From: Actinomycetota bacterium | GTDB taxonomy: Bacteria; Actinomycetota; Acidimicrobiia; Spongiisociales; UBA4744 | Assembly: GCA_013152275.1 (NCBI GenBank) | Contig: JAADGS010000018.1 | Span: 11,896-75,895, forward strand | Direction: 5' to 3' | DNA: 64,000 nt | Part shown: positions 3,041 through 36,807 of the stretch, in pieces | How positions within the stretch are numbered: position 1 is the stretch's first letter | Layout: each line of letters starts with the position of its first letter | Translations under genes and position numbers: made by a program | The notes under the pieces: generated by a model | Databases searched by the model: none | The model's input: the letters and a program-made list of their open reading frames with translations, nothing else | Told to the model about the DNA's origin: nothing

Positions 3041-4207
3041 ATGGGACCATTTAGAGGAAAACGATGGATTCTCATCGTCGCGGTTCTCGCAATGGTTGCC
3101 GCTGCGTGCAGCAGCGGTTCAAGCGGAACGACGGCGACCACCACGGCGGCCACCACGGCGGCCACGACGGCCACGACGACGGCCACGACGGCGGCCACGG
3201 TCGAAGAAGGCAGCATTTGGGTGCTGCTCCCTGATAGCGCGTCCTCCTCCCGTTGGGAGACGGACGATCGCCGCTACTTCAAGGCAGCGTTCGAAGACGC
3301 AGGTGTCAAGTACAAGATCGTCAACGCACAGGGCGACCCGTCCCAGCAGCAGCAGCAGGCCGAGCAGGCCATCGCTGCCGGAGCGAAGGTGATCCTGCTG
3401 GTGAATCTCGACTCGGGATCCGGTGCGGCGATTATCGCCGAAGCTCGTGCAGCCGGCGTGTCGATGATCGACTACGACCGGCTGACCATCGAAGGTCCGG
3501 GCGCCGATGTGTACGTCAGCTTCGACAATGTCAAGGTCGGCGCGACGATGGCGGAGATTCTCGAACCTGCCATCGATGCTCTCGGTCTGGCGAAGCCGCG
3601 CATTGTCATGCTCAACGGTGCACCGACCGACAACAACGCGACGCTGTTCCGTCAGGGCTACTACGAGACGGCCGTGAAACCGCGTGTCGCCGCCGGCGAC
3701 TGGGTGCTCGTTGCCGATCAGGCAGTGCCGAACTGGGACAACCAGGAAGCGTTGACGATCTTCGAGCAGATCCTCGTGGCGGCCAATAACGGGGTCGACG
3801 CGGTCTTTGCCGCCAACGACGGTCTGGCCAACTCGGTGATCACGGCCCTCAAGTCCGCTGGGATCGGCCCGATGCCGGTCAGTGGGCAGGATGCCACGGC
3901 CGCCGGGCTGCAGAACATCCTCTCCGGATGGCAGACGATGACGGTGTACAAGCCGATCAAAGCCGAGGCCAATGCCGCCGCAGGCGCGGCCATTGCGCTG
4001 CTGAAAGGCGAGCCGCTGGACGGCGTCAAGGGCGATTTCACTCTGACGACGATCAACAACGGGACGAACGATCTTCCGTTCATGGCGCTGACGCCGGTTG
4101 GCGTCACCAAGGACAACATCAAGGAGACGGTCATCGCAGACGGCTTCCGTACCTGGGACGAGATCTGCGTCGGTGAGTTCGAGCAGTACTGCCCGGCAGA
4201 CCGCTAG
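3041..4207 (+). CDS. xylF: sugar (xylose-type) ABC transporter substrate-binding lipoprotein, PBP1 family
   Basis: Signal peptide plus lipobox (VAAACSSG) and a Thr/Ala-rich linker. Periplasmic sugar-binding fold. GGAAGG SD. Sits upstream of the ABC ATPase and permease genes. Confidence 0.8.
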   Translation: MGPFRGKRWILIVAVLAMVAAACSSGSSGTTATTTAATTAATTATTTATTAATVEEGSIWVLLPDSASSSRWETDDRRYFKAAFEDAGVKYKIVNAQGDPSQQQQQAEQAIAAGAKVILLVNLDSGSGAAIIAEARAAGVSMIDYDRLTIEGPGADVYVSFDNVKVGATMAEILEPAIDALGLAKPRIVMLNGAPTDNNATLFRQGYYETAVKPRVAAGDWVLVADQAVPNWDNQEALTIFEQILVAANNGVDAVFAANDGLANSVITALKSAGIGPMPVSGQDATAAGLQNILSGWQTMTVYKPIKAEANAAAGAAIALLKGEPLDGVKGDFTLTTINNGTNDLPFMALTPVGVTKDNIKETVIADGFRTWDEICVGEFEQYCPADR

Positions 4208-4230
4208 ACGAATCGACGAGACACGATGAT

Positions 4231-4275
4231 GAGGCCTCGGCGGTGCGCGTACTACGCTCCCCGCCGAGGCCTTGT
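4231..4275 (+). terminator. Hairpin between xylF and ATPase gene (AGGCCTCGGCGG-N18-CCGCCGAGGCCT), attenuator/terminator candidate
   Basis: Perfect 12-bp GC-rich inverted repeat directly after the xylF stop, followed by TTGTCGCG. Confidence 0.5.
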
Positions 4276-4298
4276 CGCGATAGGAGTTACCCGAGATC

Positions 4299-5066
4299 AT
4301 GACTGATTCGCCCATCTTGGAGTGCAGGGGAGTCTCCAAGCATTACGGTGCCGTCCAGGCCCTGTACAAAGTCGATTTCGAGGTCCGAGCCGGTGAGGTC
4401 ATGGCGCTCGTGGGCGACAACGGCGCCGGAAAGTCGACCCTGATCAAGGGCATCGCCGGGATCTTCCCCTTCGACGAGGGCGAGGTTCGCTTCGAAGGTG
4501 AGAAGGTCGACATCACAGGTCCGCGGGACGCGGCAGCTCTCGGAATCGAAGTGGTGTATCAGGATCTCGCTCTGGCCGACAACCTCGACGTCGTCGCCAA
4601 CATGTTCCTGGGTAGAGAGCGGGTGCAGAAAGGGCTCATACTCGACGAGGCGAGCATGGAGCGTTCCGCAGAGGAGACGCTCGCCAGTCTCTCGGTCACG
4701 TCTCTCCGCCGGGTCCGTCAGGTGGTTGCCGGGTTGTCCGGTGGTCAGCGACAGTCGGTGGCGGTCGCGAAGGCGGTGATGTGGAACAGCAAGGCCGTGA
4801 TCCTCGACGAGCCAACGGCAGCGCTCGGGGTCGCGCAGACCCGACAGGTCCTCGACCTGGTGCGCAGGCTCGCCGATCGTGGCCTGGGTGTTGTGCTGAT
4901 TTCGCACAACCTTCTCGATGTGTTCGAGGCTGCCGATCGGATCACCGTGCTTCGTCTCGGCCAGCAGGTCGGCGTATACGAACGATCCGAAACGACGCAG
5001 GAAGAGATCGTCTTTGCCATCACTGCCGGATCCGTGAATCAGGTGGCCGAGGAGCAGGTCTCATGA
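4299..5066 (+). CDS. xylG: sugar ABC transporter ATP-binding protein (single NBD)
   Basis: Walker A GDNGAGKST, ABC signature LSGGQRQ, Walker B ILDEPTAAL. Confidence 0.9.
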   Translation: MTDSPILECRGVSKHYGAVQALYKVDFEVRAGEVMALVGDNGAGKSTLIKGIAGIFPFDEGEVRFEGEKVDITGPRDAAALGIEVVYQDLALADNLDVVANMFLGRERVQKGLILDEASMERSAEETLASLSVTSLRRVRQVVAGLSGGQRQSVAVAKAVMWNSKAVILDEPTAALGVAQTRQVLDLVRRLADRGLGVVLISHNLLDVFEAADRITVLRLGQQVGVYERSETTQEEIVFAITAGSVNQVAEEQVS

Positions 5067-7935: not shown

Positions 7936-8001
7936 CGGCGGGAGGTTAGGCCCAAGTTCGTGTTTCGACGTACCGTATCCCGGCTCGAGACCGCTGCTGC
8001 G

Positions 8002-8056
8002 GTTGAACCCAGGGCTCAGGGGGGTCGCCACGACCCCTACGAACCCTGGGTTCAAC
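8002..8056. repeat. REP-like palindromic element, copy C
   Basis: GTTGAACCCAGGGCTCAGGGGGGTCGCCACGACCCCTACGAACCCTGGGTTCAAC. Confidence 0.8.
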
Positions 8057-8071
8057 GGTTTGGGGGGTGCT

Positions 8072-8533
8072 TCAGCCGATCAGGTAGGTGCCCGTCCCGA
8101 CGGCGATCAGGTCGCCGGAGTCGTTGCGCAACTCCATCCGGGTGACGGCCACCTTGTTCCCCGCCCTGAGCGTGTACGCGGTCGCCTCGAACCTCGCGCC
8201 CACTCCTGGCCGAAGATAGTCGACACGCATATCGATCGTGCCGAGATGGGCGAAGCGCTCGGCCATGGTGGACGTATGGTTGCCGACCGCCGCGCTGATC
8301 GCAGACATCCCTCCGGCCACATCGAGGGTGGCCGAGATGACTCCGCCGTGGAGGCTGCCACGTGCGAAATTCCCGATGAGATCATCCCGCATCTCGAAGG
8401 TGAGGGTCGTACGATTCGGTCCCAGATCACCGAGCTGCAGGCCGAGCACCCGGTTGAACGGGATTTGGGCCTCGACGGCCCTCGTCAGATTGGCGAGATC
8501 GTTGGAGTCGTTCATGTAGGCGATTGTATGCAC
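8072..8533 (-). CDS. hotdog-fold thioesterase (PaaI/YbgC-like)
   Basis: The HGGV motif and overall length are typical of PaaI-type thioesterases. Start is uncertain: GTG at 8533 or ATG at 8515. Confidence 0.65.
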   Translation of the reverse strand: MHTIAYMNDSNDLANLTRAVEAQIPFNRVLGLQLGDLGPNRTTLTFEMRDDLIGNFARGSLHGGVISATLDVAGGMSAISAAVGNHTSTMAERFAHLGTIDMRVDYLRPGVGARFEATAYTLRAGNKVAVTRMELRNDSGDLIAVGTGTYLIG

Positions 8534-8554
8534 GGTTCGGGCCGGCCCGGCGCC

Positions 8555-8660
8555 GGGCCAGATTCAGCCCGGACCGGGGCCAGATTCAGCCCGGACCGGG
8601 GACGGACCCAGCCCAGATCCACGCCGGATTCGGCCCAGATCCGGGCCAGGCCCACGAGAA
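8555..8660. repeat. Tandem ~23-bp direct repeats (GGCCAGATTCAGCCCGGACCGGG x2, then CCCAGATCC-type variants)
   Basis: Direct repeats seen in the intergenic region between the thioesterase start and the HAD hydrolase 3' end. Confidence 0.7.
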
Positions 8661-8768
8661 GGAACCGACTCCGCCACGGTCGGGGCCGGCCGGCGTTCGC
8701 TTGCAGGAACGTCGCCTGGCGCAGGGCACCCGGCGGGGCGGTATCAGCTCGTTCGGTCCCGGGAGGGC

Positions 8769-9563
8769 TCAGCCGACGCGTCGGCGCAGACGAAGCATCC
8801 AGAACAGCGCGGCGCCGCCCACCGCCCCGGCGAGTGCGGCACCCGACACGACGGGCGTGGGACGGGGCAGGGACGCCAGACGTGTGCGGATCGTCACCGG
8901 CCGCTCGAAGCGCAGGATCTCCCACCCCCGCTCCTCTGCAACCTTGGCGAGTTCCTTGTCCGGGTTGACCGCCACGGGGTGCCCCACCGCTTCCAACATC
9001 GGAATGTCGGTGTGGGAGTCCGAATAGGCGAAGGACTCCTCGAGTGAGATGCCTTCGCGTTCGGCAAACTTCTCGATCGCCTCCGCCTTGCCCTGACCGT
9101 AGGCGTAGAACTCGATCTCGCCCGTGTACCGGCCGTGGTTGTCGACCGCGGCTCTCGTCGCGATGATCCGATCGACACGGAGATGGGAGGCAAGTGGCTC
9201 CACGATCTCCTCTGCGCTCGATGAGACGATCACGACCAGTCTTCCGGCCTGAAGGTGCTCGTCGATGATTACGAGCGCTTCGGCGAACACGAGTGGTGCC
9301 ACGACCTCGTCGACCGTCTCTCTGGCGATATTGCGTAGCTGTTGTTGATCCCACCCCTTGATGATCGCCATCATCTCTCCCCGGGCCCGCTCCATCTGGT
9401 CGTGGTCTGCTCCGAACATGCGGTACGAGATCTGCGCGAGCCCGGCCTTGAGGAGGGCGCGACGATTCAGCAGGCCCGCCTTGTAGAGGGGGCGGCCGAA
9501 GGCGAGCGTCGACGACTTGGCGATGATCGTCTTGTCGAGGTCGAAGAAGGCGGCTGCGGTCAC
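8769..9563 (-). CDS. HAD-IB family hydrolase (SerB-like), C-terminal TM anchor
   Basis: FFDLDKTII (DxD HAD motif I). C-terminal hydrophobic tail plus RRR. Positioned like Mtb Rv3661 next to the tad locus. Confidence 0.8.
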   Translation of the reverse strand: MTAAAFFDLDKTIIAKSSTLAFGRPLYKAGLLNRRALLKAGLAQISYRMFGADHDQMERARGEMMAIIKGWDQQQLRNIARETVDEVVAPLVFAEALVIIDEHLQAGRLVVIVSSSAEEIVEPLASHLRVDRIIATRAAVDNHGRYTGEIEFYAYGQGKAEAIEKFAEREGISLEESFAYSDSHTDIPMLEAVGHPVAVNPDKELAKVAEERGWEILRFERPVTIRTRLASLPRPTPVVSGAALAGAVGGAALFWMLRLRRRVG

Positions 9564-9719
9564 GGGTTGATTCTACGTGTCGATGGGGGATCGTCTGTGT
9601 TCGGCACGGGCGGTTCCCGGTCCGGAATCCACCATTCATGCCACATTCGCGGCCCCGTGACAAGGGGTTGTCCTCGCTCTTGCCGGCGCATACGTTGCTC
9701 AACGAGAGCAAGGAGTGAT

Positions 9720-10250
9720 GTGCCGGTTCTGTGCGTCCGAACAGAACAAGATGGCCTGCTGTCGGCGATTGCGCCGATCGGTCTCGCCGCGGCGGTCGAA
9801 ACTGCGCTCGTCGTCGACCTCGATCCGGAAGGTCCCGACTATCGGGGTGAGACATCGCTTGCCCGTCTCGTCGCAGACGGTCCGACACGCCGGGATCTGC
9901 ATCCGTCGAGAAGAGGTGTTGCCGTTCTGCGCAACGGCGGGATCGCCTACCAGGAGGCGGAGCAGGTGCTGGACGCACTGAGTGAGGGCTGGCCGCACCT
10001 GGTGCTGCGGCTTCCGGCGCGTGGCCTGTCGGTTCGATACGCGCCGGTCGTCCCGGGGGCACTCGCCATCGCGCAGAAGGGCCCCGCCGTATTCCAGCGA
10101 GCCGGATTTCGACTGAAGCCGCCCGCGCCGGGACCTGTGCTTCCAGCGCCGTCACGACGCACGGTCGGCGGGTTGCTGCGCGGCCAGGTCGATTCGCACA
10201 GCCGTTGGATCCGCGCCTGGCGCGGCATCTGGGAGCTGCCATGGATGTGA
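9720..10250 (+). CDS. degenerate TadZ/CpaE-like (MinD/ParA-fold) protein lacking the P-loop
   Basis: AAGGAG SD 5 nt before GTG 9720. MinD-like N-terminus in which GKGGVGKT is replaced by EQDGLLSA, while the DxD-like VVDLDPEG is retained. 10-nt overlap with tadA. The earlier part of ORF 9342..10250 overlaps the HAD gene on the other strand and is rejected. Confidence 0.5.
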   Translation: MPVLCVRTEQDGLLSAIAPIGLAAAVETALVVDLDPEGPDYRGETSLARLVADGPTRRDLHPSRRGVAVLRNGGIAYQEAEQVLDALSEGWPHLVLRLPARGLSVRYAPVVPGALAIAQKGPAVFQRAGFRLKPPAPGPVLPAPSRRTVGGLLRGQVDSHSRWIRAWRGIWELPWM

Positions 10251-11302
10251 GACGGCGGATCATGGGCCGTCTGCTCGCATCCGACATTCCATTGGAACGC
10301 GCTGCCGTGACCAGGGCAGCCACGGCGATACTCCGAGATGAGGCACCGCTCGCCCCGCCGGGGACCGCCCTGCAGGTCGCCGACGCGCTCGTCGGGCTGG
10401 GCCCGCTCGAGGCGCTTCTGCGGGACCCTGCGGTCTCCGACGTTCTCGTGAACGGTCCCGAGGACATCTGGGTCGAACGCTCCGGCGGACTGTCGCGCTC
10501 CGACGTCGTGTTCGCCGACGATGCCGAGATCGTCGCCGCGGTCGAACGGGTCGTAGGTCCGCTCGGGTTGCGGATCGATCGGGCATCGCCGATGGTGGAT
10601 GCGCGGCTCCCTGACGGCAGCCGCCTCCACGCGGTCGTTCCTCCTGCCGCGGTCGATGGCCCGATCCTCGCCGTTCGACGGTTCACCGCGGCCGTTCCCG
10701 ATCTCGATGCGCTCATCGCCGCCGGGTCCATTCGCAGGGAAGCCTCCGAACTGCTTCGGGCTGCGGTCGGGAATCGGGAGTCGATCGTCATCTCCGGGGG
10801 CACCGGCACCGGCAAGACCACGCTGTTGAACATCCTGTCGACCGAGATCGCGGGATCCGAACGGATCGTGACGGTGGAAGACGCCGCCGAGCTGAGGCTG
10901 AGCGGCCATGTCGTTCGTCTCGAGGCGAGACCCGCGAATGCAGAGGGAGCAGGGGAGGTGTCGCTGCGAGAACTCGTTCGGTCCGCACTGCGTCTCAGAC
11001 CCGATCGGATCATCCTCGGTGAGGTCAGGGGGCCCGAGGCGCTCGACATGATCACCGCCATGAACACGGGGCATCGCGGCTCGATGTCGACGGTGCATGC
11101 CAACAGTCCCGAAGAGGCGATGTGGCGTCTGGAGACCCTTGCGCTCTCCGGTTCCCGGCGGGTCTCCGAGGTCACCGTGCGGCGGCAACTCTTCGCGGCG
11201 ATCGACTATGTCGTCCAGGTCGAGCGCCAGGCCGGTGGACGTCGAGTGGCCACGATCGTGAAGGTCGCGGGAGAAGCGCTCGATCAGGTGTACGCATGCT
11301 GA
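10241..11302 (+). CDS. tadA: Tad/Flp pilus assembly ATPase (CpaF/TadA, type II/IV secretion NTPase)
   Basis: Walker A GGTGTGKTT, Asp box, His box and Walker B typical of the CpaF/VirB11 family. GGGAG SD. Confidence 0.9.
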   Translation: MDVRRRIMGRLLASDIPLERAAVTRAATAILRDEAPLAPPGTALQVADALVGLGPLEALLRDPAVSDVLVNGPEDIWVERSGGLSRSDVVFADDAEIVAAVERVVGPLGLRIDRASPMVDARLPDGSRLHAVVPPAAVDGPILAVRRFTAAVPDLDALIAAGSIRREASELLRAAVGNRESIVISGGTGTGKTTLLNILSTEIAGSERIVTVEDAAELRLSGHVVRLEARPANAEGAGEVSLRELVRSALRLRPDRIILGEVRGPEALDMITAMNTGHRGSMSTVHANSPEEAMWRLETLALSGSRRVSEVTVRRQLFAAIDYVVQVERQAGGRRVATIVKVAGEALDQVYAC

Positions 11303-26407: not shown

Positions 26408-26479
26408 AGCCGGAGCGGGGAATCGAACCCCGGACCTGCTCATTACGAGTGAGCTGCTCTACCGCTGAGCTACTCCGGC
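26408..26479 (-). tRNA. tRNA-Thr (anticodon CGU)
   Basis: Reverse complement reads GCCGGAGTAGCTCAGCGGTAGAGCAGCTCACTCGTAATGAGCAGGTCCGGGGTTCGATTCCCCGCTCCGGCT. Acceptor stem 7 bp, anticodon loop CTCGTAA, TPsiC GGTTCGATTCC. CCA is not encoded. Confidence 0.9.
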
Positions 26480-27717: not shown

Positions 27718-28770
27718 GTGACTGCGACTCAGATTCCGTGGGCTGTCTCCACCCGGCTCGCCTCGACCGTTGCCGGGCACCACCCCCTCGAGGGGTCCTA
27801 TCATCAGCGCCTTCTCGAGCTGCAGGCACCCGAATTCGTCGCACGCGCCGAGCCTCTCGTCGCGGAGGCGACCGGGCTCGCCTCGACAGGTGTCCCTGAG
27901 GTCCGGGTCGTCACCAGGACCGAGTGGGCCGAGCGCAACGTCGCCTTCTTCGCCCATCTCATGGACTCCGTCGAGGATCGCCTCTCCGAACGGCTGTCCC
28001 GGTTCGGGCCCCTCGGACAGGGTGCAGGCTATCTGGCCCGGAGAGCCGTGGCCGCAGAGACCGGAGCGCTGCTTGGTGTGATGGCCCGACGCGTCCTCGG
28101 CCAGTACGAACTCGCCCTGCCCACCAAGTTGGACGGGGACACGGTCTATCTCGTCGGCGCCAACATCCTCTCGCTCGAGAGAAGCCATCAGTTCCGTCCT
28201 CTCGAATTCAGACTGTGGCTGGCGCTCCACGAATGCACGCATCGGCTCCAGTTCGTGGGGATTCCCTGGATGCGCGCCTACTTCCTCGATCTCGTGAAGG
28301 CGTTGATCTCCTCGGCGGAACCGGAGCCCGGCCGATTGGTCCGCGTTGCCGCCGAGCTTCGAGACGCAGCGATGCAGGGTCGGCCGCTGGTCGGTGAGAC
28401 CGGCCTGTTCGGGCTTTTTGCGAACGATGGGCAGCGGGCGCTCATCGACAAGGTTCAGGCGTTGATGTCGCTGCTCGAAGGCCACGGTCACGTGATCATG
28501 GACCGGATCGGCGAAGGAATGCTCGTGACCCAGGCCCGCATGTCGAGCATCCTCAAACAGCGAAGAAACGATCCGCGTACGGCCGCGTTCTTCCGGTTGA
28601 CCGGCATGGAGATGAAGTTCAAGCAATACGAGATGGGGGAGCGCTTCGTCAAGATCGTCGAGCGTGAAGCCGGATGGGACGCCATCGGCATTGCCTGGCG
28701 AGGTCCCGAGTTCCTCCCGACCCGCGACGAGATCGACGAGCCGATCCGATGGCTGACTCGCGTCGCTTGA
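27718..28770 (+). CDS. zinc-dependent metalloprotease-like conserved actinobacterial protein (HExxH; DUF2342-like, Rv3626c-like)
   Basis: LALHECTHRLQF (HExxH). Positioned upstream of tilS as in mycobacteria. Confidence 0.7.
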   Translation: MTATQIPWAVSTRLASTVAGHHPLEGSYHQRLLELQAPEFVARAEPLVAEATGLASTGVPEVRVVTRTEWAERNVAFFAHLMDSVEDRLSERLSRFGPLGQGAGYLARRAVAAETGALLGVMARRVLGQYELALPTKLDGDTVYLVGANILSLERSHQFRPLEFRLWLALHECTHRLQFVGIPWMRAYFLDLVKALISSAEPEPGRLVRVAAELRDAAMQGRPLVGETGLFGLFANDGQRALIDKVQALMSLLEGHGHVIMDRIGEGMLVTQARMSSILKQRRNDPRTAAFFRLTGMEMKFKQYEMGERFVKIVEREAGWDAIGIAWRGPEFLPTRDEIDEPIRWLTRVA

Positions 28771-30077
28771 GTGCGCTCGCCCGCACGGTGCCGGCTCGAT
28801 TCGGTGCCCTCACGAGCCCGTGCGTCGTTGCCCTCTCCGGCGGTCCGGACAGTGCCGTCTGCGCGTGGGCCGCACTCGAGGCCGGCCTCACCGTGCGCGC
28901 CGTACACGTCGATCATGGTCTCGCGGGTTCCCCGTTCGTACGTGGGGCCGCCGTTGCGGTTGCGGCGTTCCTCGACATCCCGCTGCACATCGCGGAGGTG
29001 ACCGTTGGCGGAGGATCGTCACCGGAGGGCCGCGCCAGGACTGCTCGCTACGAGGCGCTCGAGGCAGCCCTCGAGCCGGGAGAGTTGCTCCTCACCGGCC
29101 ACACGCTCTCAGACCAGGCCGAGACCGTGTTGGGCAACCTGCTGAGGGGCGCAGGACCGGACGGGCTCGCAGGCATTCCGCGCCGGCGGGGACGAATCGT
29201 CCGCCCCCTTTTGGACGTGACACGATCCCAGACGCGTGAGCTCGCCACACTGTTGGGGCTTCCCTGGGTCGAAGATCCGGTGAATCTGGAAGCGGGGCCA
29301 CGCAGGAATCTCATTCGCCGGGAGGCCATCCCCTATCTCGAAGGGCGGTTCAATCCTTCGCTCGAACGGGCACTCGTACGCACGGCCGACGCGCTCTGCG
29401 CGCACAACGAATACCTGGACCGGCAGGCCGATCGGGTGCCCGTGACGGTCACCGGCGCTTCCGTCCGGTTGTCGGCGGCAATCCTGGCGACGATCGATCC
29501 GGTCATTGCAGTCAGAGCCGTTCGCCGGGCGATACGCATGATCGGCGGCCCGCACGCAGGCGACGCTCGCGACGTGCACCTCGTCCTGAGTGTCGCGCGC
29601 GGGACGCAGATGCGCGCCTCGTTGACCGGCGGCCTGGAGGCGGAGCGCCGCCGGGCGCTGGTCGTGCTTTCGCGACCGGCGGCGGTGGTGGTGCCCGAAT
29701 CGGCCCTCTGGACGCTTCCCGGAAGCGCGGTGTTCGGAACCTGGTCCTTCGACGCATGGGTCGCGGAGGCGCCCCCGGCCGCGTTCCCCGTGAGCCGTTT
29801 CGTCGAGGTCATGGATGCGTCTGCGGTCCCTTCCGCGGTCACGGTGCGGGGCGTGCGCACCGGAGACAGGATCGTGATCGCAGGTGGCCACAAGGACGTG
29901 GCGGAGACGTTGACGGAAGCCGGCGTTCCCGTGTCCGAACGTCCGGTCTGGCCGGTGATCGTCGGCCCGCAGGAGCAGGTCCTGTGGGTTCCGGGTGTGC
30001 GTCGCGCGGATCTCGGCTGGGTGGATTCGGCCACGAGGCGCTACCTTTGGGTCCGCGCGACTCGGGAGGATGCGTGA
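28749..30077 (+). CDS. tilS: tRNA(Ile)-lysidine synthetase
   Basis: PP-loop ALSGGPDSAV, TGHTLSDQAET. Confidence 0.9.
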   Translation: MADSRRLSALARTVPARFGALTSPCVVALSGGPDSAVCAWAALEAGLTVRAVHVDHGLAGSPFVRGAAVAVAAFLDIPLHIAEVTVGGGSSPEGRARTARYEALEAALEPGELLLTGHTLSDQAETVLGNLLRGAGPDGLAGIPRRRGRIVRPLLDVTRSQTRELATLLGLPWVEDPVNLEAGPRRNLIRREAIPYLEGRFNPSLERALVRTADALCAHNEYLDRQADRVPVTVTGASVRLSAAILATIDPVIAVRAVRRAIRMIGGPHAGDARDVHLVLSVARGTQMRASLTGGLEAERRRALVVLSRPAAVVVPESALWTLPGSAVFGTWSFDAWVAEAPPAAFPVSRFVEVMDASAVPSAVTVRGVRTGDRIVIAGGHKDVAETLTEAGVPVSERPVWPVIVGPQEQVLWVPGVRRADLGWVDSATRRYLWVRATREDA

Positions 30078-30601
30078 AGGTCGGGAAGACGCTCATCAGC
30101 GCCGAAGAAATCGAAGCGGCACTCGCCACGATGGGCCGGGCCATATCCGAAGATTACGCCGGAAAGGACCTGCTGATGATCGCCGTCCTCAAGGGCGCCT
30201 TCATCACGTTGGCCGACTTGGCACGCCACATCGAGATACCCGTGGAATTCGACTTCATGGCGGTCTCCTCGTACGGCGCGGCCACCAAGACCTCCGGTGT
30301 CGTGAGGATCCTCAAGGACCTCGACCAGGAGATCGCAGGGCGTGACGTTCTCGTCGTCGAGGACATCATCGATTCCGGGCTCACGCTCAACTACCTGCTC
30401 AAGAGCTTGCGGGTCCGGCACCCGGAGTCGCTCGAGATCGCGGCGCTGCTCGTCAAGAAGGACATCCAGCGGATACCGATCGACGTCAAGTACACGGGTT
30501 TCGAGATCGGTCCCGAATTCGTGATCGGCTATGGGCTCGATTACGCCGGCAAGTATCGGAACCTGCCGCACATCGCGGTGATGGTCGAAGACGACGAATA
30601 G
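30074..30601 (+). CDS. hpt: hypoxanthine phosphoribosyltransferase
   Basis: PRTase motif VLVVEDIIDSGLTL. GTG start overlapping the tilS stop, with GGGAGGA SD. Confidence 0.9.
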   Translation: MKVGKTLISAEEIEAALATMGRAISEDYAGKDLLMIAVLKGAFITLADLARHIEIPVEFDFMAVSSYGAATKTSGVVRILKDLDQEIAGRDVLVVEDIIDSGLTLNYLLKSLRVRHPESLEIAALLVKKDIQRIPIDVKYTGFEIGPEFVIGYGLDYAGKYRNLPHIAVMVEDDE

Positions 30602-30609
30602 GGGTCTCG

Positions 30610-30702
30610 CATCTCGTACTTCGTATCTCGTGCCCCGCACTTCGTACGCGACATGGCACTGCTCCAAGACCGCGAGGCGGGTGAAACGGCGCTCGCCGAC
30701 CG
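30610..30702. repeat. Heptad-array/CGCTCGCC intergenic element (degenerate copy)
   Basis: CATCTCG TACTTCG TATCTCG TGCCCCG CACTTCG TACGCG (period 7), then GGCGCTCGCCGACC at 30687-30702. Lies between hpt and ftsH. Confidence 0.65.
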
Positions 30703-30843
30703 GCCGCGCGCGGAGAGGGCCGTCCCGTCGGGGTGGACTCGACAGATCCCTAACTTTGTAGCCGATCAACGGCGATACTATGAGAAACCCAATCGTGCGC
30801 CGAGAGGTGTGAAACCGTCCCGCGAAGGGGCCTGAGGAGATTC

Positions 30844-32748
30844 GTGAACCGTACCATCCGTTCGATCCTGGTCTACGGGCTGATCGCCATGATCCTGCTG
30901 GTTCTCCTCCAGCAGTATCTCGGCACGACGGCAGAGCCGGACAAGGTCTCGTACAGCGAGTTCTGGAACGACATCACCGCGGGCAAGGTCGCGACCGCGA
31001 CCATCATGCAGAAATCCAACGTGGTGACGGGTGAGTTCGTCGGTTCCGTCGATGGCACCCCGGACTACAAGGTCGATTATCTGCAGGAGGACGAGAACGA
31101 GCTTTCCGCGGCGTTGAGGAAGGCCGGCGTCGACGTGAAGGTCGATCCGGAACCGGCCGGATTCTGGGAGATCTTGATCACGTTCCTGCCGTGGCTGTTC
31201 CTCATCGGCTTCATGGTGTTCATCTTCATGCAGATGCAGGGGTCGGGGAACCGGGTGATGCAGTTCGGCAAGTCGCGGGCGAAACAGGTCTCGCGCGACA
31301 TGCCGAAGATCACCTTTGCCGACGTCGCCGGGGTCGACGAGGCCGTCGAGGAGCTGACCGAGCTCAAGGAGTTTCTCCAATCGCCGGACAAGTTCAGGGC
31401 GTTGGGCGCCAAGATGCCCAAAGGGGTGCTGCTGTTCGGCCCTCCCGGCACCGGTAAGACGTTGCTTGCCCGCGCCGTCGCCGGCGAGGCGGGCGTGCCG
31501 TTCTTCACGATTGCCGGTTCCGACTTCGTCGAGATGTTCGTCGGTGTCGGGGCGTCTCGGGTTCGCGATCTGTTCGAACAGGCCAAGGCGCAGGCACCGG
31601 CCATCGTATTCATCGACGAGATCGACGCCGTCGGCAGGCATCGCGGTGCCGGTCTCGGCGGCGGACACGACGAACGAGAGCAGACACTCAACCAGTTGCT
31701 GGTGGAACTCGACGGATTCGATGTCAACACCGGCGTGATCGTGATCGCAGGCACCAACCGGCCCGACATCCTCGACCCTGCACTGCTGCGCCCGGGACGG
31801 TTCGACCGTCAGATCGTCGTCGACCGTCCGGACCTGCCGGGCCGCAAGGCGATCCTCGCGGTGCATGCGCGCGGAAAGCCGCTCGCCGACGACATCGACC
31901 TGGAGGTGCTGGCTCGCCAGACGCCCGGTTTCACCGGGGCGGACCTGGCCAACCTGCTGAACGAAGGAGCGTTGCTGGCGGCACGCCGCGACAAGGACCT
32001 GATAGCGATGGAGGAACTCGAGGAGTCCATCGAGCGGGTCATCGCCGGGCCCGAGCGCAAGAGCAGGCTGATCTCCGACGGGGAGAAGAAGGTCATCGCC
32101 TATCACGAGACCGGGCATGCGCTGGTCGGGTGGGCGCTTCCGATGGCCGACCCGATCCACAAGGTCACGATCATCCCCCGTGGCCGCTCGCTCGGGCACA
32201 CGCAATCTCTGCCGGAGGAAGACAAGTACATCATGCGGCGTTCCGAGCTCGTCGATCAGTTGGCGATGTTCCTGGGCGGCCGGACGGCAGAGGAGTTGGT
32301 GTTCGACGATCCGAGCACCGGTGCCGGCGACGACATCGAGAAGGCGACCGATATCGCACGCCAGATGGTCATGGAGTACGGGATGAGCGACCGGCTGGGA
32401 CCGATGAAGTACGGGCACGCCGACGGCGAAGTCTTCCTCGGTCGAGACTACGGCCGTCAGCAGGACTACTCGGATGAGGTGGCCGCCTTCATCGACGCCG
32501 AGGTTCGCAAGCTGATCTCTCAGGCGCACAGGGAAGCTCGCCAGATTCTCGAGACTCATCGAGCCGCCCTCGACCGGATGGCGGCCGTGCTCATCGAGAA
32601 GGAAACGATCGACGCCGGCGAAGTCGCCGAGATCTTCAAAGACGTGCCGAAATGGCAGCACGCGCACAGCGACGGCATCCGTATCCGGGTTCCCGGCAGC
32701 GCTCCGGCTGCCGGCGGGGTCGCGGCCGACCACACGGAGACCGTTTGA
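30844..32748 (+). CDS. ftsH: ATP-dependent zinc metalloprotease FtsH
   Basis: N-terminal TM, AAA Walker [12 protein letters not shown], HEtGHAL zinc site. GGAG SD before the GTG start. Confidence 0.95.
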
Positions 32749-33323
32749 TGGGGGACGTTCCGGACCTCGAGGCGATCGCCGGAGCCGTCTACACGATCCT
32801 CGAAGCAGTCGGTGAAGACCCCGAACGTGAGGGCCTCGCGAGCACACCCGAGCGCGTCGCCCGCATGTACGCGGAAGTGTTCGGTGGGCTTCGTCAGGAC
32901 CCTAAAGAGATCCTCGAGACGGTGTTCGTGCGAGAGGAGCACCGTGAGATCGTCATGGTCAGGGATATTCCGTTCTACTCGATGTGCGAGCACCACCTCA
33001 TGCCGTTCCACGGGAGCGCGCATGTCGCCTACCTCCCCAAGGGAACGCTCACGGGACTCTCGAAGCTCGCCCGCCTCGTCGAGGTGTTCGCCCGCAGGCC
33101 TCAGCTCCAGGAACGGCTCACGACGCAGATCGCCGACACGTTGATGGATACCGTCGACCCGTACGGCGTACTGGTGGTCGTCGAGGCCGAGCATCTGTGC
33201 ATGAGCATGCGCGGGGTAAAGAAACCCGGAGCGATCACGACGACCTCTGCGGTCCGGGGCGCCTTCGCGAAGAGCGCGGCGACCCGCTCGGAGGCATTCG
33301 CGCTGTTGTTCGGGAACCGATGA
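32748..33323 (+). CDS. folE: GTP cyclohydrolase I
   Basis: [14 protein letters not shown] motif. TGATG overlap with the ftsH stop. Confidence 0.95.
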
Positions 33324-34159
33324 CCTGGCGGGTGCGCGGCGTGTCCCTCCCCGACAGGGCACTGATCATGGGCATCGTGAACGTCACTCCCGACTCGTTC
33401 TCCGATGGTGGCCGCTTCTTCGATCCGGACGAGGCCATCGCTCTGAGCGTCCGCCTCGTCGCAGAAGGCGCAGACGTCATCGATGTCGGAGGGGAGTCGA
33501 CCAGACCGGGGGCCGAGCCGGTACCGGCCGCCGAAGAGATCAGACGGGTCGAGCCCGTGGTGGAAGCACTCGCAGGTGAAGGCGTCGTCGTCTCCATCGA
33601 CACGACGAAGCCCGAGGTTGCCCACGCTGCACTGGAGGCGGGAGCATCGATCGTCAACGATGTGTCCGCACTCGGCGCAGCCGGGATGGCCGAGGCGGTC
33701 GCCGAGTCCGGTGCGGGGCTCGTGCTCATGCACATGCAGGGGACCCCCCGCACGATGCAGGCCAATCCCACCTATGGCGACGTCATCGCAGAAGTCAGGG
33801 ACTTCCTCGTCGAACGGGCGTTGTTCGCGCAGGACCGGGGCATCTCGCCGGGCCGCATAGTGATCGATCCGGGTATCGGATTCGGCAAGACGGTCGGGCA
33901 CAACCTCGCGTTGCTGGCGCACATCGGTGTCCTCGTGGAGACCGGCTACCCGGTGTTGATCGGAACGTCCCGCAAGTCGTTCCTCGGGGTGCTGACGGGA
34001 GAGGAGCGGCCGGAACATCGCGATGTGGCCACGGCTGCGGCGTCGGCGTTGGCGGTGGCCGCGGGGGCATCCGTCGTTCGTGTACACAATGTTGCCGTTT
34101 CTCGGCCTGCTGTGCAGGTTGCCGACGCTATGGTTCGATGTGGAGGCAGAGTGTCATGA
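33320..34159 (+). CDS. folP: dihydropteroate synthase
   Basis: [37 protein letters not shown] overlap with folE. Confidence 0.95.
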
Positions 34160-34632
34160 CGGGACTGGAACCGAGAGCGTTCACATGGGTGATCAAAGGG
34201 CGCCTGGCAGTGTGTGAGCGGATTGGCGGGCACGGCATTCAGCATCGCCGGGTTCGCCGTGAAGAGGAGATCGTCTGGCTGCAGAGTGGAGCGGGTATCA
34301 ACACGGTTGTGACCCTGCTCGCCGGAGGACAGAACGTGGCGAACTATCAGGACGCCGGTTTCACGGTGTTCCACGAGCCGCTCGTCGGAGAGTACGAACA
34401 GGGAGACGTCGATAGGGTGTTCGACGCCCTCGACCTCGCGTTGTCGGAGCCGGACAGCGTCGTCCTGGTGCACCGTGACCTGGTCGACGACACGATCGCC
34501 GGCCTGCTCGCCGGCTATCTCGTGTACTCGAAGCTGGTCACCGATCCGATCCTCGCCATAGCCGTCATTCAGGAGATCCTTGGCCGACCGCTCGGCCCGG
34601 AGGGCCGGGCGCTCGTGCCAGTCAGAGCCTGA
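34156..34632 (+). CDS. DSP-fold (dual-specificity phosphatase-like) protein with degenerate catalytic loop, putative pseudophosphatase
   Basis: Topology resembles DSP: ...GINTVVTLL...VFHEPLVGEY...SVVLVHRDLVDDTIAGLLAGYLVY. The HCxxGxxR loop is replaced by HRDLVDDT. ATGA overlap with the folP stop. Confidence 0.5.
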   Translation: MTGLEPRAFTWVIKGRLAVCERIGGHGIQHRRVRREEEIVWLQSGAGINTVVTLLAGGQNVANYQDAGFTVFHEPLVGEYEQGDVDRVFDALDLALSEPDSVVLVHRDLVDDTIAGLLAGYLVYSKLVTDPILAIAVIQEILGRPLGPEGRALVPVRA

Positions 34633-34639
34633 GGCTGCG

Positions 34640-34999
34640 ATGAGCGGACGAATCGAGCTGGGCGGTATCCGGGTCTTCGCGCACCACGGCGTGTATCCGG
34701 AAGAACGGCAGGCCGGGCAGACGTTCGTGATCGATGTGACCATGTACCTGGATCTCGAGCCGGCCGCGGCGACGGACGATCTGGCGGCGACGATCGACTA
34801 CGGGGCCCTTGCCCAGGCCATCCATGATCGTGTCGCCGACGAGCGCTGGGGTCTCATCGAACGAGTCGCCGGCCGTGTGGCCGATCTGGTGATGGAGGAT
34901 GTCCGGATCGATGCGGTCGAGGTGACCGTACACAAGCCGGAGGCGCCGATTCCCGTCCCGTTCGACGACGTGTCGGTCTCGATCCGGCGGAGTCGATGA
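34640..34999 (+). CDS. folB: dihydroneopterin aldolase
   Basis: IRVFAHHGVYPEER, QTFVIDV motifs. Confidence 0.9.
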   Translation: MSGRIELGGIRVFAHHGVYPEERQAGQTFVIDVTMYLDLEPAAATDDLAATIDYGALAQAIHDRVADERWGLIERVAGRVADLVMEDVRIDAVEVTVHKPEAPIPVPFDDVSVSIRRSR

Positions 35000-35952
35000 C
35001 ACGGGCGGCGATCGCTCTCGGCTCGAACCTGGGTGACCGGATCGACCATCTCCAGGTCGCCGTCGTGGCGCTCGCCGCCTGTGGTGAGGTCGAGGCCGTG
35101 TCATCGGTGTATGAGACGGCGCCGGTGGGCGGGCCGGAGCAGGGACCGTACCTGAACGCCGTCGCCGTCGTCGAGACGGACCTGGAACCCCACGAGCTGC
35201 TCGACGGCCTGCTCCGGATCGAGCAGGAGGCCGGCAGGGAACGAACGACCCGGTGGGGACCGCGAACGCTCGACCTGGACCTGATCCTGTACGGCGACCG
35301 GATGATCGACGATGAGCGCCTGACGGTGCCGCATCCCCGATTCGCGCTCCGCCGGTTCGTCCTGGAGCCGCTCGCGGAGGTGTGGCCGGATGCTGCGACG
35401 CCCGATGGGGGGTCGGTCGCCGCTCTGCTCCCCTTCGTGCAAGATCAGAACGTGTCGCGGATCAATCGACGGTTGAGCACTCGCCCGGAGACATTCACGT
35501 CTCGGGGAGGCTGGTGGGTGACGGCGCAGGGCGTGGTGCTCGTTGCGGCGGCGGTGGCACTGCTCACCGATGCGGGCTCGTTGGCCTGGCCGCCTTGGGT
35601 CGTCTGGTTGGGAGCGATTCTGGCAGTTGCGGGTGCCGTCGAGTCGTTGCTCGGGTCACGGCACCTCGGTGCGAATCTGACGCCGTATCCGCAGCCGCTG
35701 TCCTCGGGGAGGCTCGTGGCGTCGGGCGCCTACCGGTGGGTGCGGCATCCGATCTACGGGGGGATCGTGCTGCTGCTCGTGGGCGCGGCGCTGCTCCGGT
35801 CGAGTCTCGTCGCGTTGATCGTCGGGATCGTCGGCGCAGCGTTCTTCTGGATGAAGGCCCGCTTCGAGGAGGAGCGCCTCGTCGAGCGCTACGCGGGGTA
35901 CGCGGCGTACCGGGCGCACGTGAGGAAGCGGCTCATCCCCTGGGTCGTGTAA
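34996..35952 (+). CDS. folK: HPPK (FolK) fused to C-terminal ICMT/PEMT-like membrane methyltransferase domain
   Basis: N-terminal AIALGSNLGDR, RWGPRTLDLDLI and TVPHPR are HPPK motifs. The C-terminal half has ~4 TM helices and RWVRHPIYGG with EEER, the ICMT/PEMT family signature. ATGA overlap with folB. Confidence 0.75.
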   Translation: MTRAAIALGSNLGDRIDHLQVAVVALAACGEVEAVSSVYETAPVGGPEQGPYLNAVAVVETDLEPHELLDGLLRIEQEAGRERTTRWGPRTLDLDLILYGDRMIDDERLTVPHPRFALRRFVLEPLAEVWPDAATPDGGSVAALLPFVQDQNVSRINRRLSTRPETFTSRGGWWVTAQGVVLVAAAVALLTDAGSLAWPPWVVWLGAILAVAGAVESLLGSRHLGANLTPYPQPLSSGRLVASGAYRWVRHPIYGGIVLLLVGAALLRSSLVALIVGIVGAAFFWMKARFEEERLVERYAGYAAYRAHVRKRLIPWVV

Positions 35953-35955
35953 CGA

Positions 35956-36669
35956 TCAGGAGTCCAGCGACAGCTCCCAGACGCGGGCCTTCCACAGCAG
36001 GCGGGAGCCCCGCCGGGTGACGGTGACGATCCCGCGGTCGATCAGATCCTTGAGGGCTGCGCTTGCGGCCAACTGACTCGGCAGTGGGATCGGTCGGTCG
36101 GTGAGCGCCTTGACTCTCCCATAGAGGGCACGGGCCCGCTGGATGATCGCGGCCTCGTCCTGAAGGGTGCCTGTCGGCAGGAACAGTCTCCCCATCGGCC
36201 GGAGCCTGCGTTTCGCCTCTTCCAGCATGCGGATCGGCAGCTCGCTGCCGCGCGGACCGCCCCCGCCCTTGGTCGGGAACCAACCGCTGTCATCGGCGAG
36301 CCGGTCCGGGATTCCGGAGACGTCACCGATGATCACGTCGGCTTCGACGTCGTCGGGAATCGGTGAGAACAGGTCGCCCTGGTAGAAGGTGATCCTGTCG
36401 GCGACACCCTGCTCGACGGCATTCGCCAGGCCGACCTCCACGACGTCGGGGCTCTTGTCGACGGCGTGGACACTGGACGCCCCGAGCTTCGCGGCGATGA
36501 TCGCAAGGATCCCCGAACCGCAACCGATGTCGATGACGACATCGCCCGGTTCGACGTGCAGCGCCTCGGCGAGGAGCCCGGAGATCGTCGACGGCCGGAA
36601 CGTCGTATCGGAGATTCGTAGATGTATCGGCCCCAGTCGGCCTTTCCAGTTGAAGATGTTGCTGCCCAT
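35956..36669 (-). CDS. class I SAM-dependent methyltransferase (small-domain MTase)
   Basis: VIDIGCGSGILAI (motif I), acidic motif II, DVSGIP motif IV-like. Confidence 0.7.
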   Translation of the reverse strand: MGSNIFNWKGRLGPIHLRISDTTFRPSTISGLLAEALHVEPGDVVIDIGCGSGILAIIAAKLGASSVHAVDKSPDVVEVGLANAVEQGVADRITFYQGDLFSPIPDDVEADVIIGDVSGIPDRLADDSGWFPTKGGGGPRGSELPIRMLEEAKRRLRPMGRLFLPTGTLQDEAAIIQRARALYGRVKALTDRPIPLPSQLAASAALKDLIDRGIVTVTRRGSRLLWKARVWELSLDS

Positions 36670-36807
36670 GGCGTTTTCCTCGTTCGGTGCTTACACCCTA
36701 TTCGGATTCCGGATGTGTGCACGGCGGGTCTGCGACTTCGACTCGCCGTGCAGGCGTTTGGTTGCAGATCGGCCGCTACGCTGCACCGTCATGACCTTTG
36801 GCGGAAC

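Follow-up and report, generated by a model that had tools for sequence, protein, structure and literature searches.

The DNA studied is a 64,000-nt stretch (hereafter the window) from an Actinomycetota bacterium (Acidimicrobiia; Spongiisociales; UBA4744), corresponding to positions 11,896-75,895 of the forward strand of contig JAADGS010000018.1 in assembly GCA_013152275.1. Its + strand contains a gap-free chain of genes in the order ftsH-folE-folP-X-folB-folK, in which X (34156-34632) is the ORF of a Cys-less, DUSP23-like protein of 158 aa with a PTP/DSP fold. The first gene of the chain, ftsH (30844-32748), was assigned from the ORF list and from tblastn synteny in 69 loci, with Pfam FtsH domains present in locus L166. 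It is followed by folE (GTP cyclohydrolase I, 32748-33323; Pfam GTP_cyclohydroI, 2.2e-76) and folP (dihydropteroate synthase, 33320-34159; full-length match to Pfam Pterin_bind, 2.8e-86) and, after X, by folB (dihydroneopterin aldolase, 34640-34999; Pfam FolB, 3.3e-39) and folK (HPPK, 34996-35952; Pfam HPPK, 2.4e-40; NCBIfam folK, 2.4e-44), all on the + strand. These matches confirm the identity of the flanking fol genes given in a preliminary description of this DNA. The ftsH and folE genes overlap by 1 nt (TGATG, 32746-32750), and ATGA overlaps join folE to folP (33320-33323) and folB to folK (34996-34999). The folK product is a fusion, with HPPK in residues 1 to ~160 and a C-terminal PEMT/ICMT-like membrane domain in residues ~176-318 (Pfam PEMT, 1.5e-11; ICMT, 2.9e-8). 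No promoter-like or terminator-like sites were found within 30500-36800, and an Rfam search of the window for riboswitches or other RNA control elements returned only one tRNA (26408-26479). The corresponding cluster of M. tuberculosis is folE-folP1-folB-folK, and no gene of this kind is known to interrupt folP-folB in mycobacteria, in line with the preliminary description.

The ATG of X (34156-34158) overlaps the folP stop codon (TGA, 34157-34159) as ATGA, a junction already recognized in the preliminary description, and a GGAGG at 34142-34146 lies 9 nt upstream of the start, giving a folP-X translational coupling element that spans 34142-34159 on the + strand. At the other end, a GAGG overlaps the X stop codon (34630-34632), and folB starts at 34640. 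The same description placed the end of X 8 bp before folB; the closeness stands, and the true spacer is 7 nt, 8 being the distance from the end of the stop codon to the start of the ATG. An upstream ATG at 34138, which would give a longer ORF, was rejected because homologs begin at MTGLEPR, fixing the start at 34156. The translation read from this ORF includes GINTVVTLL, FHEPLVGEY and VVLVHRDLVDDTIAGLLAGYLVY.

Homology searches recovered ~5,700 relatives of X (1135 at E<=1e-3 with the window protein, and >4500 with the sister branch), all apparently from Acidimicrobiia. A metagenome scan seeded with two low-GC members gave no matches. Pairwise dN/dS of X was 0.03-0.14, and its median identity (60.5%) was on a par with that of FolP (57.8%), FolB (60.5%) and FolK (56.7%), so that X is conserved as strongly as these neighbors. 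Residue conservation was scored over 356 unique sequences and position counts were made over 362 near-full-length relatives, and ~23 positions of X were at least 97% conserved. Given the thousands of homologs and the low dN/dS, X is a real gene, and its ORF is far beyond chance. The presence of many chance ORFs on both strands of the window, together with the absence of a significant Pfam or NCBIfam match to X, would suit a phosphatase gene in decay, a spurious ORF in high-GC DNA, or an active DSP altered by sequencing errors. That explanation has a negligible probability, and is refuted by the full-length homologs, the dN/dS of 0.03-0.14, the neighbor-level conservation, the confidently predicted fold and a motif that is Cys-less in every relative.

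Several database proteins appeared to be fusions of X with FolP, FolB, HPPK or TilS (P0142, P0226, P0249, P0251, P0254 and others). These contain long out-of-frame stretches rich in Arg, Pro and Ala, and were rejected as frameshifted gene calls; they were therefore counted as evidence of adjacency only, and Rosetta-stone support was discarded. X had no match in PADLOC or PHROGs, and an origin from a defense system or a phage was rejected on this ground.

The AF2 model of X (pLDDT 92.6) and fold comparison showed an alpha/beta fold with a central sheet and the strand-loop-helix P-loop of the PTP fold. A profile of the X family, compared with PDB sequences, matched 25xa_A with an E of 1.1e-12, and ShufPTP, VHR and Tk-PTP with E values of 3e-4 to 2e-3, establishing sequence homology to bona fide PTP/DSP members. 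The dual-specificity phosphatase fold that had been proposed earlier is borne out by the model and by the 25xa_A match. Searches with the single X sequence were less sensitive: the best Pfam match was the sub-threshold PTP-SAK (E 0.087), NCBIfam gave none, and a PDB match to YjeF (E 0.69) was set aside as a chance match. A few family members reached DSPc and Tc-R-P at E 0.006-0.02 (DSPc 0.011, Tc-R-P 0.006), which is still sub-threshold. Structural neighbors of X include the baculovirus RNA 5'-phosphatase, PIR1, Mce1, Siw14 and PFA-DSP1. Neither Pfam nor NCBIfam contains a model for the X family, and a literature search covering pseudophosphatases in folate operons, dihydroneopterin-monophosphate phosphatase and Acidimicrobiia folK returned nothing on it. 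The X family is a new, unclassified family within the known PTP/DSP superfamily.

The nearest known relatives of X are the DUSP23/VHZ-like proteins, which include human VHZ (4erc/2img), the archaeal SsoPTP and Tk-PTP, and the bacterial 25xa_A. Shared with these are a P-x-x-F-x-W-V-I-x-G-x-L-A strand, a PGG loop, a (V/L)L(V/I)H strand before the P-loop and an A-G-Y-L helix after it. X descends from DUSP23/VHZ-like dual-specificity phosphatases and has kept their fold, including the P-loop geometry. In contrast to these relatives, it has no nucleophilic Cys (0/362), has lost the P-loop Arg in the window clade, and has Gly at the aligned general-acid position, with D/E79 next to it. It also differs from them by a 6-residue insertion (HRxVRR), by a new set of invariant residues (E21, R22, E37, E38, N60 and Y64), by being encoded in a folate operon, and by falling below threshold for all Pfam DSP models.

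The P-loop equivalent of X is HRDLVDDT (codons 106-113; 34471-34494, + strand), which aligns to HCRAGYGR of 25xa_A. In the model, DSSP assigned a strand to residues 103-106, a loop to 107-111 and a helix from 112. In the profile alignment to 25xa_A, the catalytic Cys is replaced by R107 and the P-loop Arg by T113. Among the 362 relatives, position 107 is Arg in 204, Gln in 120, Gly in 11, His in 8 and Leu in 5, with Met, Ala, Ser and Glu also occurring and Cys in none; of 405 clusters, the 150 representatives that were listed likewise have no HC motif. The earlier claim that HCxxGxxR has given way to HRDLVDDT with no Cys holds for X, and the missing Cys is common to all these relatives; one retaining the catalytic Cys, which would have spoken against the claim, was not found. 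The 362 relatives show no alternative conserved Cys, no column exceeding 14% Cys, and C20, the sole Cys of X, is unconserved (Ser in 302/362). As the residue at position 107 varies between clades, this position is not catalytic. At position 113 (+7 from the His), the counts were 164 Thr, 124 Arg, 16 Gly and 13 Ala, and the +7 Arg is kept only in an Acidimicrobiales-like sister branch (HQEELGDR); the P-loop motif differs by clade, taking the forms HRDxxDDT, HQEELGDR and HRRRRTDL. In the window protein, the description of this loop as having no Arg is correct for +7, the canonical position, but not for +1, which is R107; nor does it hold for the sister branch. The general-acid (D-loop) equivalent is at codons 78-79 (G78 and E79; 34387-34392, + strand). 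In the alignment to 25xa_A the general-acid Asp falls on G78 (Gly in 200/362), and the adjacent E79 is Asp or Glu in 312/362 (86%), so a one-residue shift of the loop is possible.

Judged from its sequence, a cysteinyl-phosphate mechanism would be impossible for X, since the catalytic Cys is missing. X combines a PTP fold, replaced catalytic residues and a dN/dS of 0.03-0.14, the features by which we define a pseudophosphatase. The verdict "catalytically dead" made previously is accurate only as regards the canonical Cys/Arg/Asp chemistry, as a rebuilt and strongly constrained pocket leaves other chemistry possible.

One family-specific part of this putative pocket is a Gly-rich loop with an Arg-rich N-terminal extension of helix alpha1 (codons 21-38, ERIGGHGIQHRRVRREEE; 34216-34269, + strand). 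It carries the family motif ERxGGxGxxHRxVRRxEE, with a 6-residue Arg-rich insertion compared with true DSPs, as seen against 25xa_A. Over the 356 unique sequences, E21 is conserved at 92%, and R22, G24, G25, H30, R31, R34, R35, E37 and E38 at 97-100%. Elsewhere, H106 is conserved at 99.7%, D/E108 at 98% and D/E112 at 99%, with N60 and Y64 also in the 92-100% band. Model confidence is lowest at codons 21-38 (pLDDT 78 for the block, and <50 in the model of a sister-branch protein). The loops after beta2, beta3, beta4 and beta5 probably form the canonical active-site crevice, and, when placed by fold topology, these loops appear to carry nearly all the invariant polar residues. We read this pattern as suggesting that the active site of X was rebuilt, rather than decayed. 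The E21-E38 loop and helix, N60, Y64, D/E79, H106, D/E108 and D/E112 would then form a specific ligand pocket, in which the Arg cluster, the Gly loop and the helix dipole may grip a phosphate, diphosphate or triphosphate tail, and the set of Asn, carboxylate and aromatic residues would suit a pterin ring. The binding of phosphate or pterin-pyrophosphate put forward in the preliminary description would be plausible.

The gene context of X was compared at 80 loci from genomes and 83 from metagenomes, with 166 loci in all; adjacency to fol genes was checked also in L081, L164, L165 and L166. A fol gene adjoins X in 79/80 genome loci and in 165/166 loci overall, with L070 as the sole exception, in agreement with a conserved operon position across relatives. 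In the taxonomic order of the window, folE and/or folP followed by X, folB and folK was found in 41 of the 80 genome loci, and folP-X-folK in another 38. In the sister taxonomic order (the sister branch), 40 of the 42 well-flanked metagenome loci have folE-folP-X-folB-folK, and a low-GC lineage has hpt-X-folB-folK. OY970200.1 and CBDCGU010000003.1 are of the folP-X-folK type, OY760694.1, OZ241858.1 and OZ246890.1 are of the full type, and JAMBLJ010000061.1 has X only. folK adjoins X in all loci but one, and folP is missing from beside X in L023 and L164. The folP-X-folK loci form a large, monophyletic clade with neither folE nor folB in the operon or in the +/-10 kb around it, and this clade keeps X with unchanged motifs and a dN/dS of 0.03-0.07. 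Identity of X across the two taxonomic orders is only ~40%. X is always on the strand of the fol genes, with start and stop codons that overlap or nearly so. X is functional and has been inherited vertically as part of the pterin-branch folate operon of Acidimicrobiia, a whole class that keeps in this operon a phosphatase-fold protein without the defining residue of the fold. A functional link to ftsH was rejected, because in the sister order ftsH lies outside the cluster and folP and folB still flank X.

Locus L070 comes from the one genome in which X is retained without any adjacent fol gene: folP and folK are cleanly deleted, and an intact, fully conserved X lies between ftsH and DUF2520-panC-coaX. 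This locus, and the loss of different fol neighbors in different lineages while X stays, would be expected if X worked through protein contacts, as an adaptor or a regulator such as a phospho-protein reader, or acted outside folate synthesis, its place in the operon being inherited synteny of an ancient tilS-hpt-ftsH-fol-pan block. Eukaryotic pseudophosphatases are mostly adaptors. STYX, MK-STYX, the inactive myotubularins and tensin/auxilin act as eukaryotic signaling adaptors, and mostly have a lightly altered P-loop with Arg; X, in contrast, is bacterial, belongs to a biosynthetic operon, has a thoroughly rebuilt pocket, and is related to them in sequence only at the superfamily level. An adaptor or non-folate role is unlikely in view of the persistence of at least one adjoining fol gene in 165/166 loci across two taxonomic orders and ~40% identity, with a constant strand and overlapping or near-overlapping codons, and of the sister order, in which folP and folB flank X in the absence of an adjacent ftsH. 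Invariant charged residues at a ligand crevice would also be unusual for a co-evolving protein interface, and X matches no defense or phage families.

X is instead a candidate folate-pathway accessory, as yet uncharacterized, and a putative handler of phosphorylated pterin intermediates. Of the steps of folate biosynthesis, those that strip phosphate from dihydroneopterin triphosphate have the poorest gene assignment: most bacteria have no assigned pyrophosphatase gene, and the final phosphate is left to an unspecified phosphatase (PMC1971073). In the folKEPQC cluster of L. lactis, an extra gene, folQ, follows folP (PMC1971073). X is similarly an extra gene after folP, and could serve the same pathway segment as FolQ/NudB and the FolQ2 (HD-domain) candidates. 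The likeness is one of operon position: in contrast to FolQ/NudB, X has an unrelated fold, lacks a Nudix box, matches neither NUDIX nor HD in Pfam, and is retained in operons that have lost folE and folB.

A possible, if doubtful, role for X is that of a cysteine-independent phosphohydrolase for the dephosphorylation between FolE and FolB, taking dihydroneopterin triphosphate to the monophosphate and/or dihydroneopterin. These are the FolQ/NudB and the "non-specific phosphatase" steps, and X would stand in for the Nudix enzyme as a non-orthologous substitute. The triphosphate would be gripped by the Arg cluster and the Gly loop, and E21, D/E79, H106, D/E108, D/E112 and H30 would provide for metal-activated water or a phospho-His. 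The operon encodes FolE, FolP, FolB and FolK, leaving only the phosphatase steps without a gene, and contains no conserved extra gene besides X; a Nudix box is absent from the 64-kb window and from all 166 loci. The ancestral fold is that of a phosphatase, some structural neighbors act on tri- or diphosphate ends, and the ~15 invariant charged or polar residues make a pattern typical of an active site. However, the positions equivalent to the Cys, the +7 Arg and the general acid are unconserved. The cysteine phosphatases that act on polyphosphate ends, namely the RNA 5'-triphosphatases (baculovirus BVP and mammalian Mce1/PIR1) and the inositol-pyrophosphate phosphatases Siw14/PFA-DSP, all use the HCX5R Cys, which X lacks. 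We know of no PTP-fold hydrolase that works without it. The phosphohydrolase would, moreover, be needless in the folP-X-folK clade if its members relied on PTPS-III or on salvage, yet this large clade, with no folE or folB in the operon or the surrounding +/-10 kb, keeps X at a dN/dS of 0.03-0.07, and X survives in L070 with no adjacent fol gene. We hold the broader proposal to be similarly improbable, namely that the PTP fold has become a metal- or His-using, cysteine-independent phosphohydrolase for dihydroneopterin tri- or monophosphate, or one that repairs damaged pterin pyrophosphates. If this is true, an intensively studied fold would have gained a new catalytic mechanism, and the folate pathway a new enzyme family that fills its gap.

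The explanation that we prefer, while giving it somewhat less than an even chance, is that X is a true pseudophosphatase that binds a phosphorylated dihydropterin without hydrolyzing it, and serves the HPPK/DHPS part of folate synthesis as a stoichiometric accessory. Its putative ligand would be HMDHP-PP or dihydroneopterin tri- or monophosphate, and it may act as a hand-off or protection factor or as a regulatory subunit. To our knowledge, all characterized Cys-less PTP-fold proteins (STYX, MK-STYX, the inactive myotubularins, tensin and auxilin) are non-catalytic. The HPPK/DHPS part was chosen because folK and folP are the most constant companions of X, and the retention of X in the clade without folE and folB makes this link a better fit than the FolE-to-FolB segment. 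Against a non-hydrolytic binder, other bacteria do without such a carrier, the need for which is not obvious; the dense invariant His, Asp, Glu and Arg resemble an active site more than passive binding; the P-loop sequence itself is clade-variable; and the placement of the pocket derives from fold topology. The lack of folP and folK in L070, and of folP in L023 and L164, indicates that X is not strictly dependent on an adjacent FolP or FolK. If the pseudophosphatase reading is true, X would be the first bacterial one built into a vitamin pathway, giving HPPK and DHPS, which are antibiotic targets, an accessory or regulatory subunit of a new kind. X is a soluble protein of 17 kDa and pterins are commercially accessible, making both functional outcomes directly testable.

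The gene X is a 158-aa ORF (34156–34632, + strand) with the boundaries first reported for it, and its translation contains all of the peptides quoted in the preliminary description. As also described there, its start overlaps the folP stop (ATGA, 34156–34159). Seven nucleotides separate its stop codon (TGA, 34630–34632) from the folB ATG at 34640. A GGAGG motif lies 9 nt 5′ of the X ATG, and a GAGG straddles the X stop, 5′ of folB. Homologs begin with MTGLEPR, and none uses the alternative ATG at 34138, 5′ of X. Pfam matches established the identity of the fol neighbors (GTP_cyclohydroI 2e-76, Pterin_bind 3e-86, FolB 3e-39, HPPK 2e-40). ATGA overlaps are also present at the folE/folP and folB/folK junctions, and ftsH and folE overlap by one base (TGATG). 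Because the junctions overlap or nearly so, the six genes ftsH-folE-folP-X-folB-folK (30844–35952, + strand) form a gap-free chain, inside which no promoter-like or terminator-like sites and no Rfam elements were found. The cluster continues from a tilS-hpt block upstream (28674–30601).

A search with X yielded 1135 homologs (E ≤ 1e-3), all ~158 aa and all from Acidimicrobiia or Actinomycetota MAGs, none containing a Pfam domain. An identical protein is recorded as a hypothetical protein in an 'Actinobacteria bacterium' MAG (P0001). When 1.84 billion cluster representatives were searched exhaustively with an HMM, 405 clusters matched, and a member of a distant branch (P0144, ~40% identical to X) yielded >4500 further relatives labelled Acidimicrobiales. 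Pairwise dN/dS values for X were 0.03–0.14. X is conserved as strongly as the operon enzymes, with a median identity to the window protein of 60.5%, compared with 57.8% for FolP, 60.5% for FolB and 56.7% for FolK; between orders, X (39.7%) resembles FolB (41.7%). That X is a relic or an artefact is extremely improbable.

The AlphaFold2 model of X (pLDDT 92.6, pTM 0.88, 37-sequence alignment) has the secondary-structure order of a dual-specificity phosphatase (DSP), and Foldseek matched it to human VHZ (4erc, E 4e-8), in agreement with the fold proposed by eye. A less confident model of a sister-branch protein (pLDDT 78) matched the same structures. A family profile built from 33 diverse members matched 25xa_A (E 1.1e-12), and, at E ~1e-3, ShufPTP, VHR and Tk-PTP. 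Of the solved relatives, 25xa_A is nearest in sequence; this 162-aa protein, a 'dual specificity protein phosphatase family protein', keeps the HCRAGYGR loop intact and would be the natural active comparator. X thus belongs to the PTP/DSP superfamily by fold and sequence homology, nearest to the DUSP23/VHZ-like branch. However, it lacks the HCX5R signature that defines the superfamily, and therefore is not to be filed as a phosphatase. All Pfam DSP models scored below threshold on X and NCBIfam gave no matches; the family is unclassified in both, and a literature search for it found no paper.

LVH-R107-DLVDD-T113 of X corresponds to LIH-C-RAGYG-R in the alignment with 25xa_A, such that the nucleophilic Cys is replaced by R107 and the phosphate-binding Arg by T113, while the general-acid Asp of LPLPD aligns with G78. 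Among 362 near-full-length relatives, position 107 is occupied by R (204), Q (120), G (11), H (8), L (5), then M/A/S/E/D/K/P, and never by Cys. Relatives therefore do not retain the Cys at this position, and no other alignment column is Cys-rich. Position 113 is T in 164 and R in 124, with other residues fewer; position 78 is G in 200, and the adjacent position 79 is D/E in 312. Cysteinyl-phosphate chemistry is impossible in X, which is a pseudophosphatase in the working sense of the term, in that the fold is kept, the catalytic residues are replaced, and the gene is under selection. The earlier label 'catalytically dead' holds for the canonical mechanism only.

The active site is not decayed. 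Across 356 unique sequences, H106 (99.7%), D/E108 (98%) and D/E112 (99%) are conserved, as are N60, Y64 and W41 and the segment E21-R22-x-G24-G25-...-H30-R31-x-x-R34-R35-x-E37-E38 (92–100%). Within this segment lies a six-residue insertion, HRxVRR, that true DSPs lack; the segment is modelled with the least confidence in both the window and sister proteins, and is presumably mobile. Fold topology would place the canonical crevice at the loops after β2 (21–27), β3 (54–60), β4 (74–81) and β5 (107–111), and therefore the conserved polar residues would lie around the former active site. The result would be a rebuilt pocket in which an Arg cluster, a Gly-rich lid and a helix dipole are combined with carboxylate, Asn and Tyr groups. 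Selection on this pocket is strong. The P-loop varies by clade: HRDxxDDT in the order of the window, HQEELGDR (invariant) in the Acidimicrobiales-like branch, and HRRRRTDL in a low-GC lineage. Unlike STYX-type pseudophosphatases, X is bacterial, is encoded alongside metabolic enzymes in an operon, and is extensively rebuilt.

The genomic context of X was compared in 80 species-level genome loci, all from Acidimicrobiia-type MAGs. X lies on the fol strand in 80/80. The arrangement ftsH-folE-folP-X-folB-folK was found in 36 loci, and the same without folE in 4; a further 38 have ftsH-folP-X-folK, with no space for folE or folB; one has ftsH-X-folB-folK (L023) and one ftsH-X only (L070). In the sister branch, 40 of 42 well-flanked metagenome loci have folE-folP-X-folB-folK after tilS-hpt, without ftsH. 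The operon position of X is thus kept in relatives, and X is a class-wide member of the pterin-branch operon. X represents a new family of Cys-less DSP-fold proteins that occurs throughout the class and is tied to folate synthesis. The synteny tilS-hpt-(ftsH)-fol-DUF2520-panC-coaX-lysS recurs in related loci.

In a tree of X, the folP-X-folK loci group together in a single large clade of Acidimicrobiia (L015, L020, L022, L025, L030–L033, L035, L037–L045, L047–L052, L054, L056, L057, L059–L063, L065, L069, L075, L078, L079), so that folE and folB were lost from the operon in essentially one event. Annotation over ±10 kb of two loci of this kind (L165, L166) gave tilS-hpt-ftsH-folP-X-folK-DUF2520-panC-coaX-lysS, with no folE, folB, PTPS or FolE2 in that range. 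L070 (X at 3986–4468, contig JAMBLJ010000061.1) differs from its sister L065, with which it is otherwise collinear, by two clean deletions that removed folP and folK on either side of X. Its X is intact with all motifs, between ftsH and DUF2520-panC-coaX, and has a dN/dS of 0.08 relative to its sister. This locus is the best support for X acting outside folate synthesis or as a pure protein adaptor, which we consider unlikely.

X is a candidate for a new type of pathway accessory or for a long-missing folate enzyme. As an enzyme, it would be a cysteine-independent phosphohydrolase filling the FolQ/NudB and/or 'non-specific phosphatase' step. The operon has genes for all steps but these, X is its sole extra gene, no Nudix box was found in the window or any of 166 X loci, and the pattern of invariant His, Asp, Glu and Arg residues resembles a catalytic one. 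X is not a homolog of FolQ/NudB. Against this role, X is kept in the clade lacking folE and folB, and we know of no precedent for cysteine-independent hydrolysis in the PTP fold. We regard this role as somewhat less likely than the non-catalytic one described next.

We tentatively favor a true pseudophosphatase that binds a phosphorylated pterin. The pocket would suit a ligand whose phosphate tail could be bound by the Arg cluster, the Gly loop and the helix dipole, and whose head is heteroaromatic; three ligands in the pathway fit this description: DHNTP, DHNMP and HMDHP-PP. FolB, HPPK and DHPS usually recognise pterins through an Asn, a carboxylate and an aromatic residue. X may bind one of these three ligands without hydrolysing it, and assist HPPK/DHPS as a subunit for hand-off, protection or regulation. 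Non-catalytic binding is favored because all characterised Cys-less PTP-fold proteins are, to our knowledge, non-catalytic, and because the Cys-equivalent position is variable. The link to HPPK/DHPS is favored because folK and folP are the most constant neighbors of X, which stays where folE and folB are gone.

The window folK (34996–35952, + strand) encodes a 318-aa fusion of HPPK (residues 1 to ~160) and a C-terminal PEMT/ICMT-like polytopic membrane methyltransferase-type domain (Pfam PEMT 1.5e-11, ICMT 2.9e-8, DUF1295 3e-5; NCBIfam isoprenylcysteine methyltransferase 7.5e-15, below cut-off), which would anchor HPPK in the membrane. By tblastn, this domain lies directly 3′ of folK in ~33/80 related loci, almost only those containing folB. 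Two putative genes without Pfam matches, a 193-aa ORF directly downstream of folK in L059 (4991–5572, +) and a 174-aa ORF directly downstream of X in L070 (4365–4889, +), could encode, for example, a DUF3180-like membrane protein of the kind that follows folK in mycobacteria.

A low-GC contig (L164, ENA ERZ25878690 contig_20, 8001–10325) reads tilS-hpt-X-folB-folK::panC; X, with the basic P-loop HRRRRTDL, directly follows hpt without folE or folP, and folB is followed by a 436-aa HPPK and pantoate-ligase protein, an apparent FolK-PanC fusion. Proteins in the database that seem to fuse X to FolP, FolB or HPPK were rejected as frameshifted gene calls, which show adjacency only. Long X-containing chimeras (P0142, P0226, P0240, P0249, P0251, P0254, P0255, P0265, P0269) combine in-frame and out-of-frame translation of the high-GC fol operon; they carry long Arg/Pro/Ala-rich stretches, and would mislead domain-fusion analysis.
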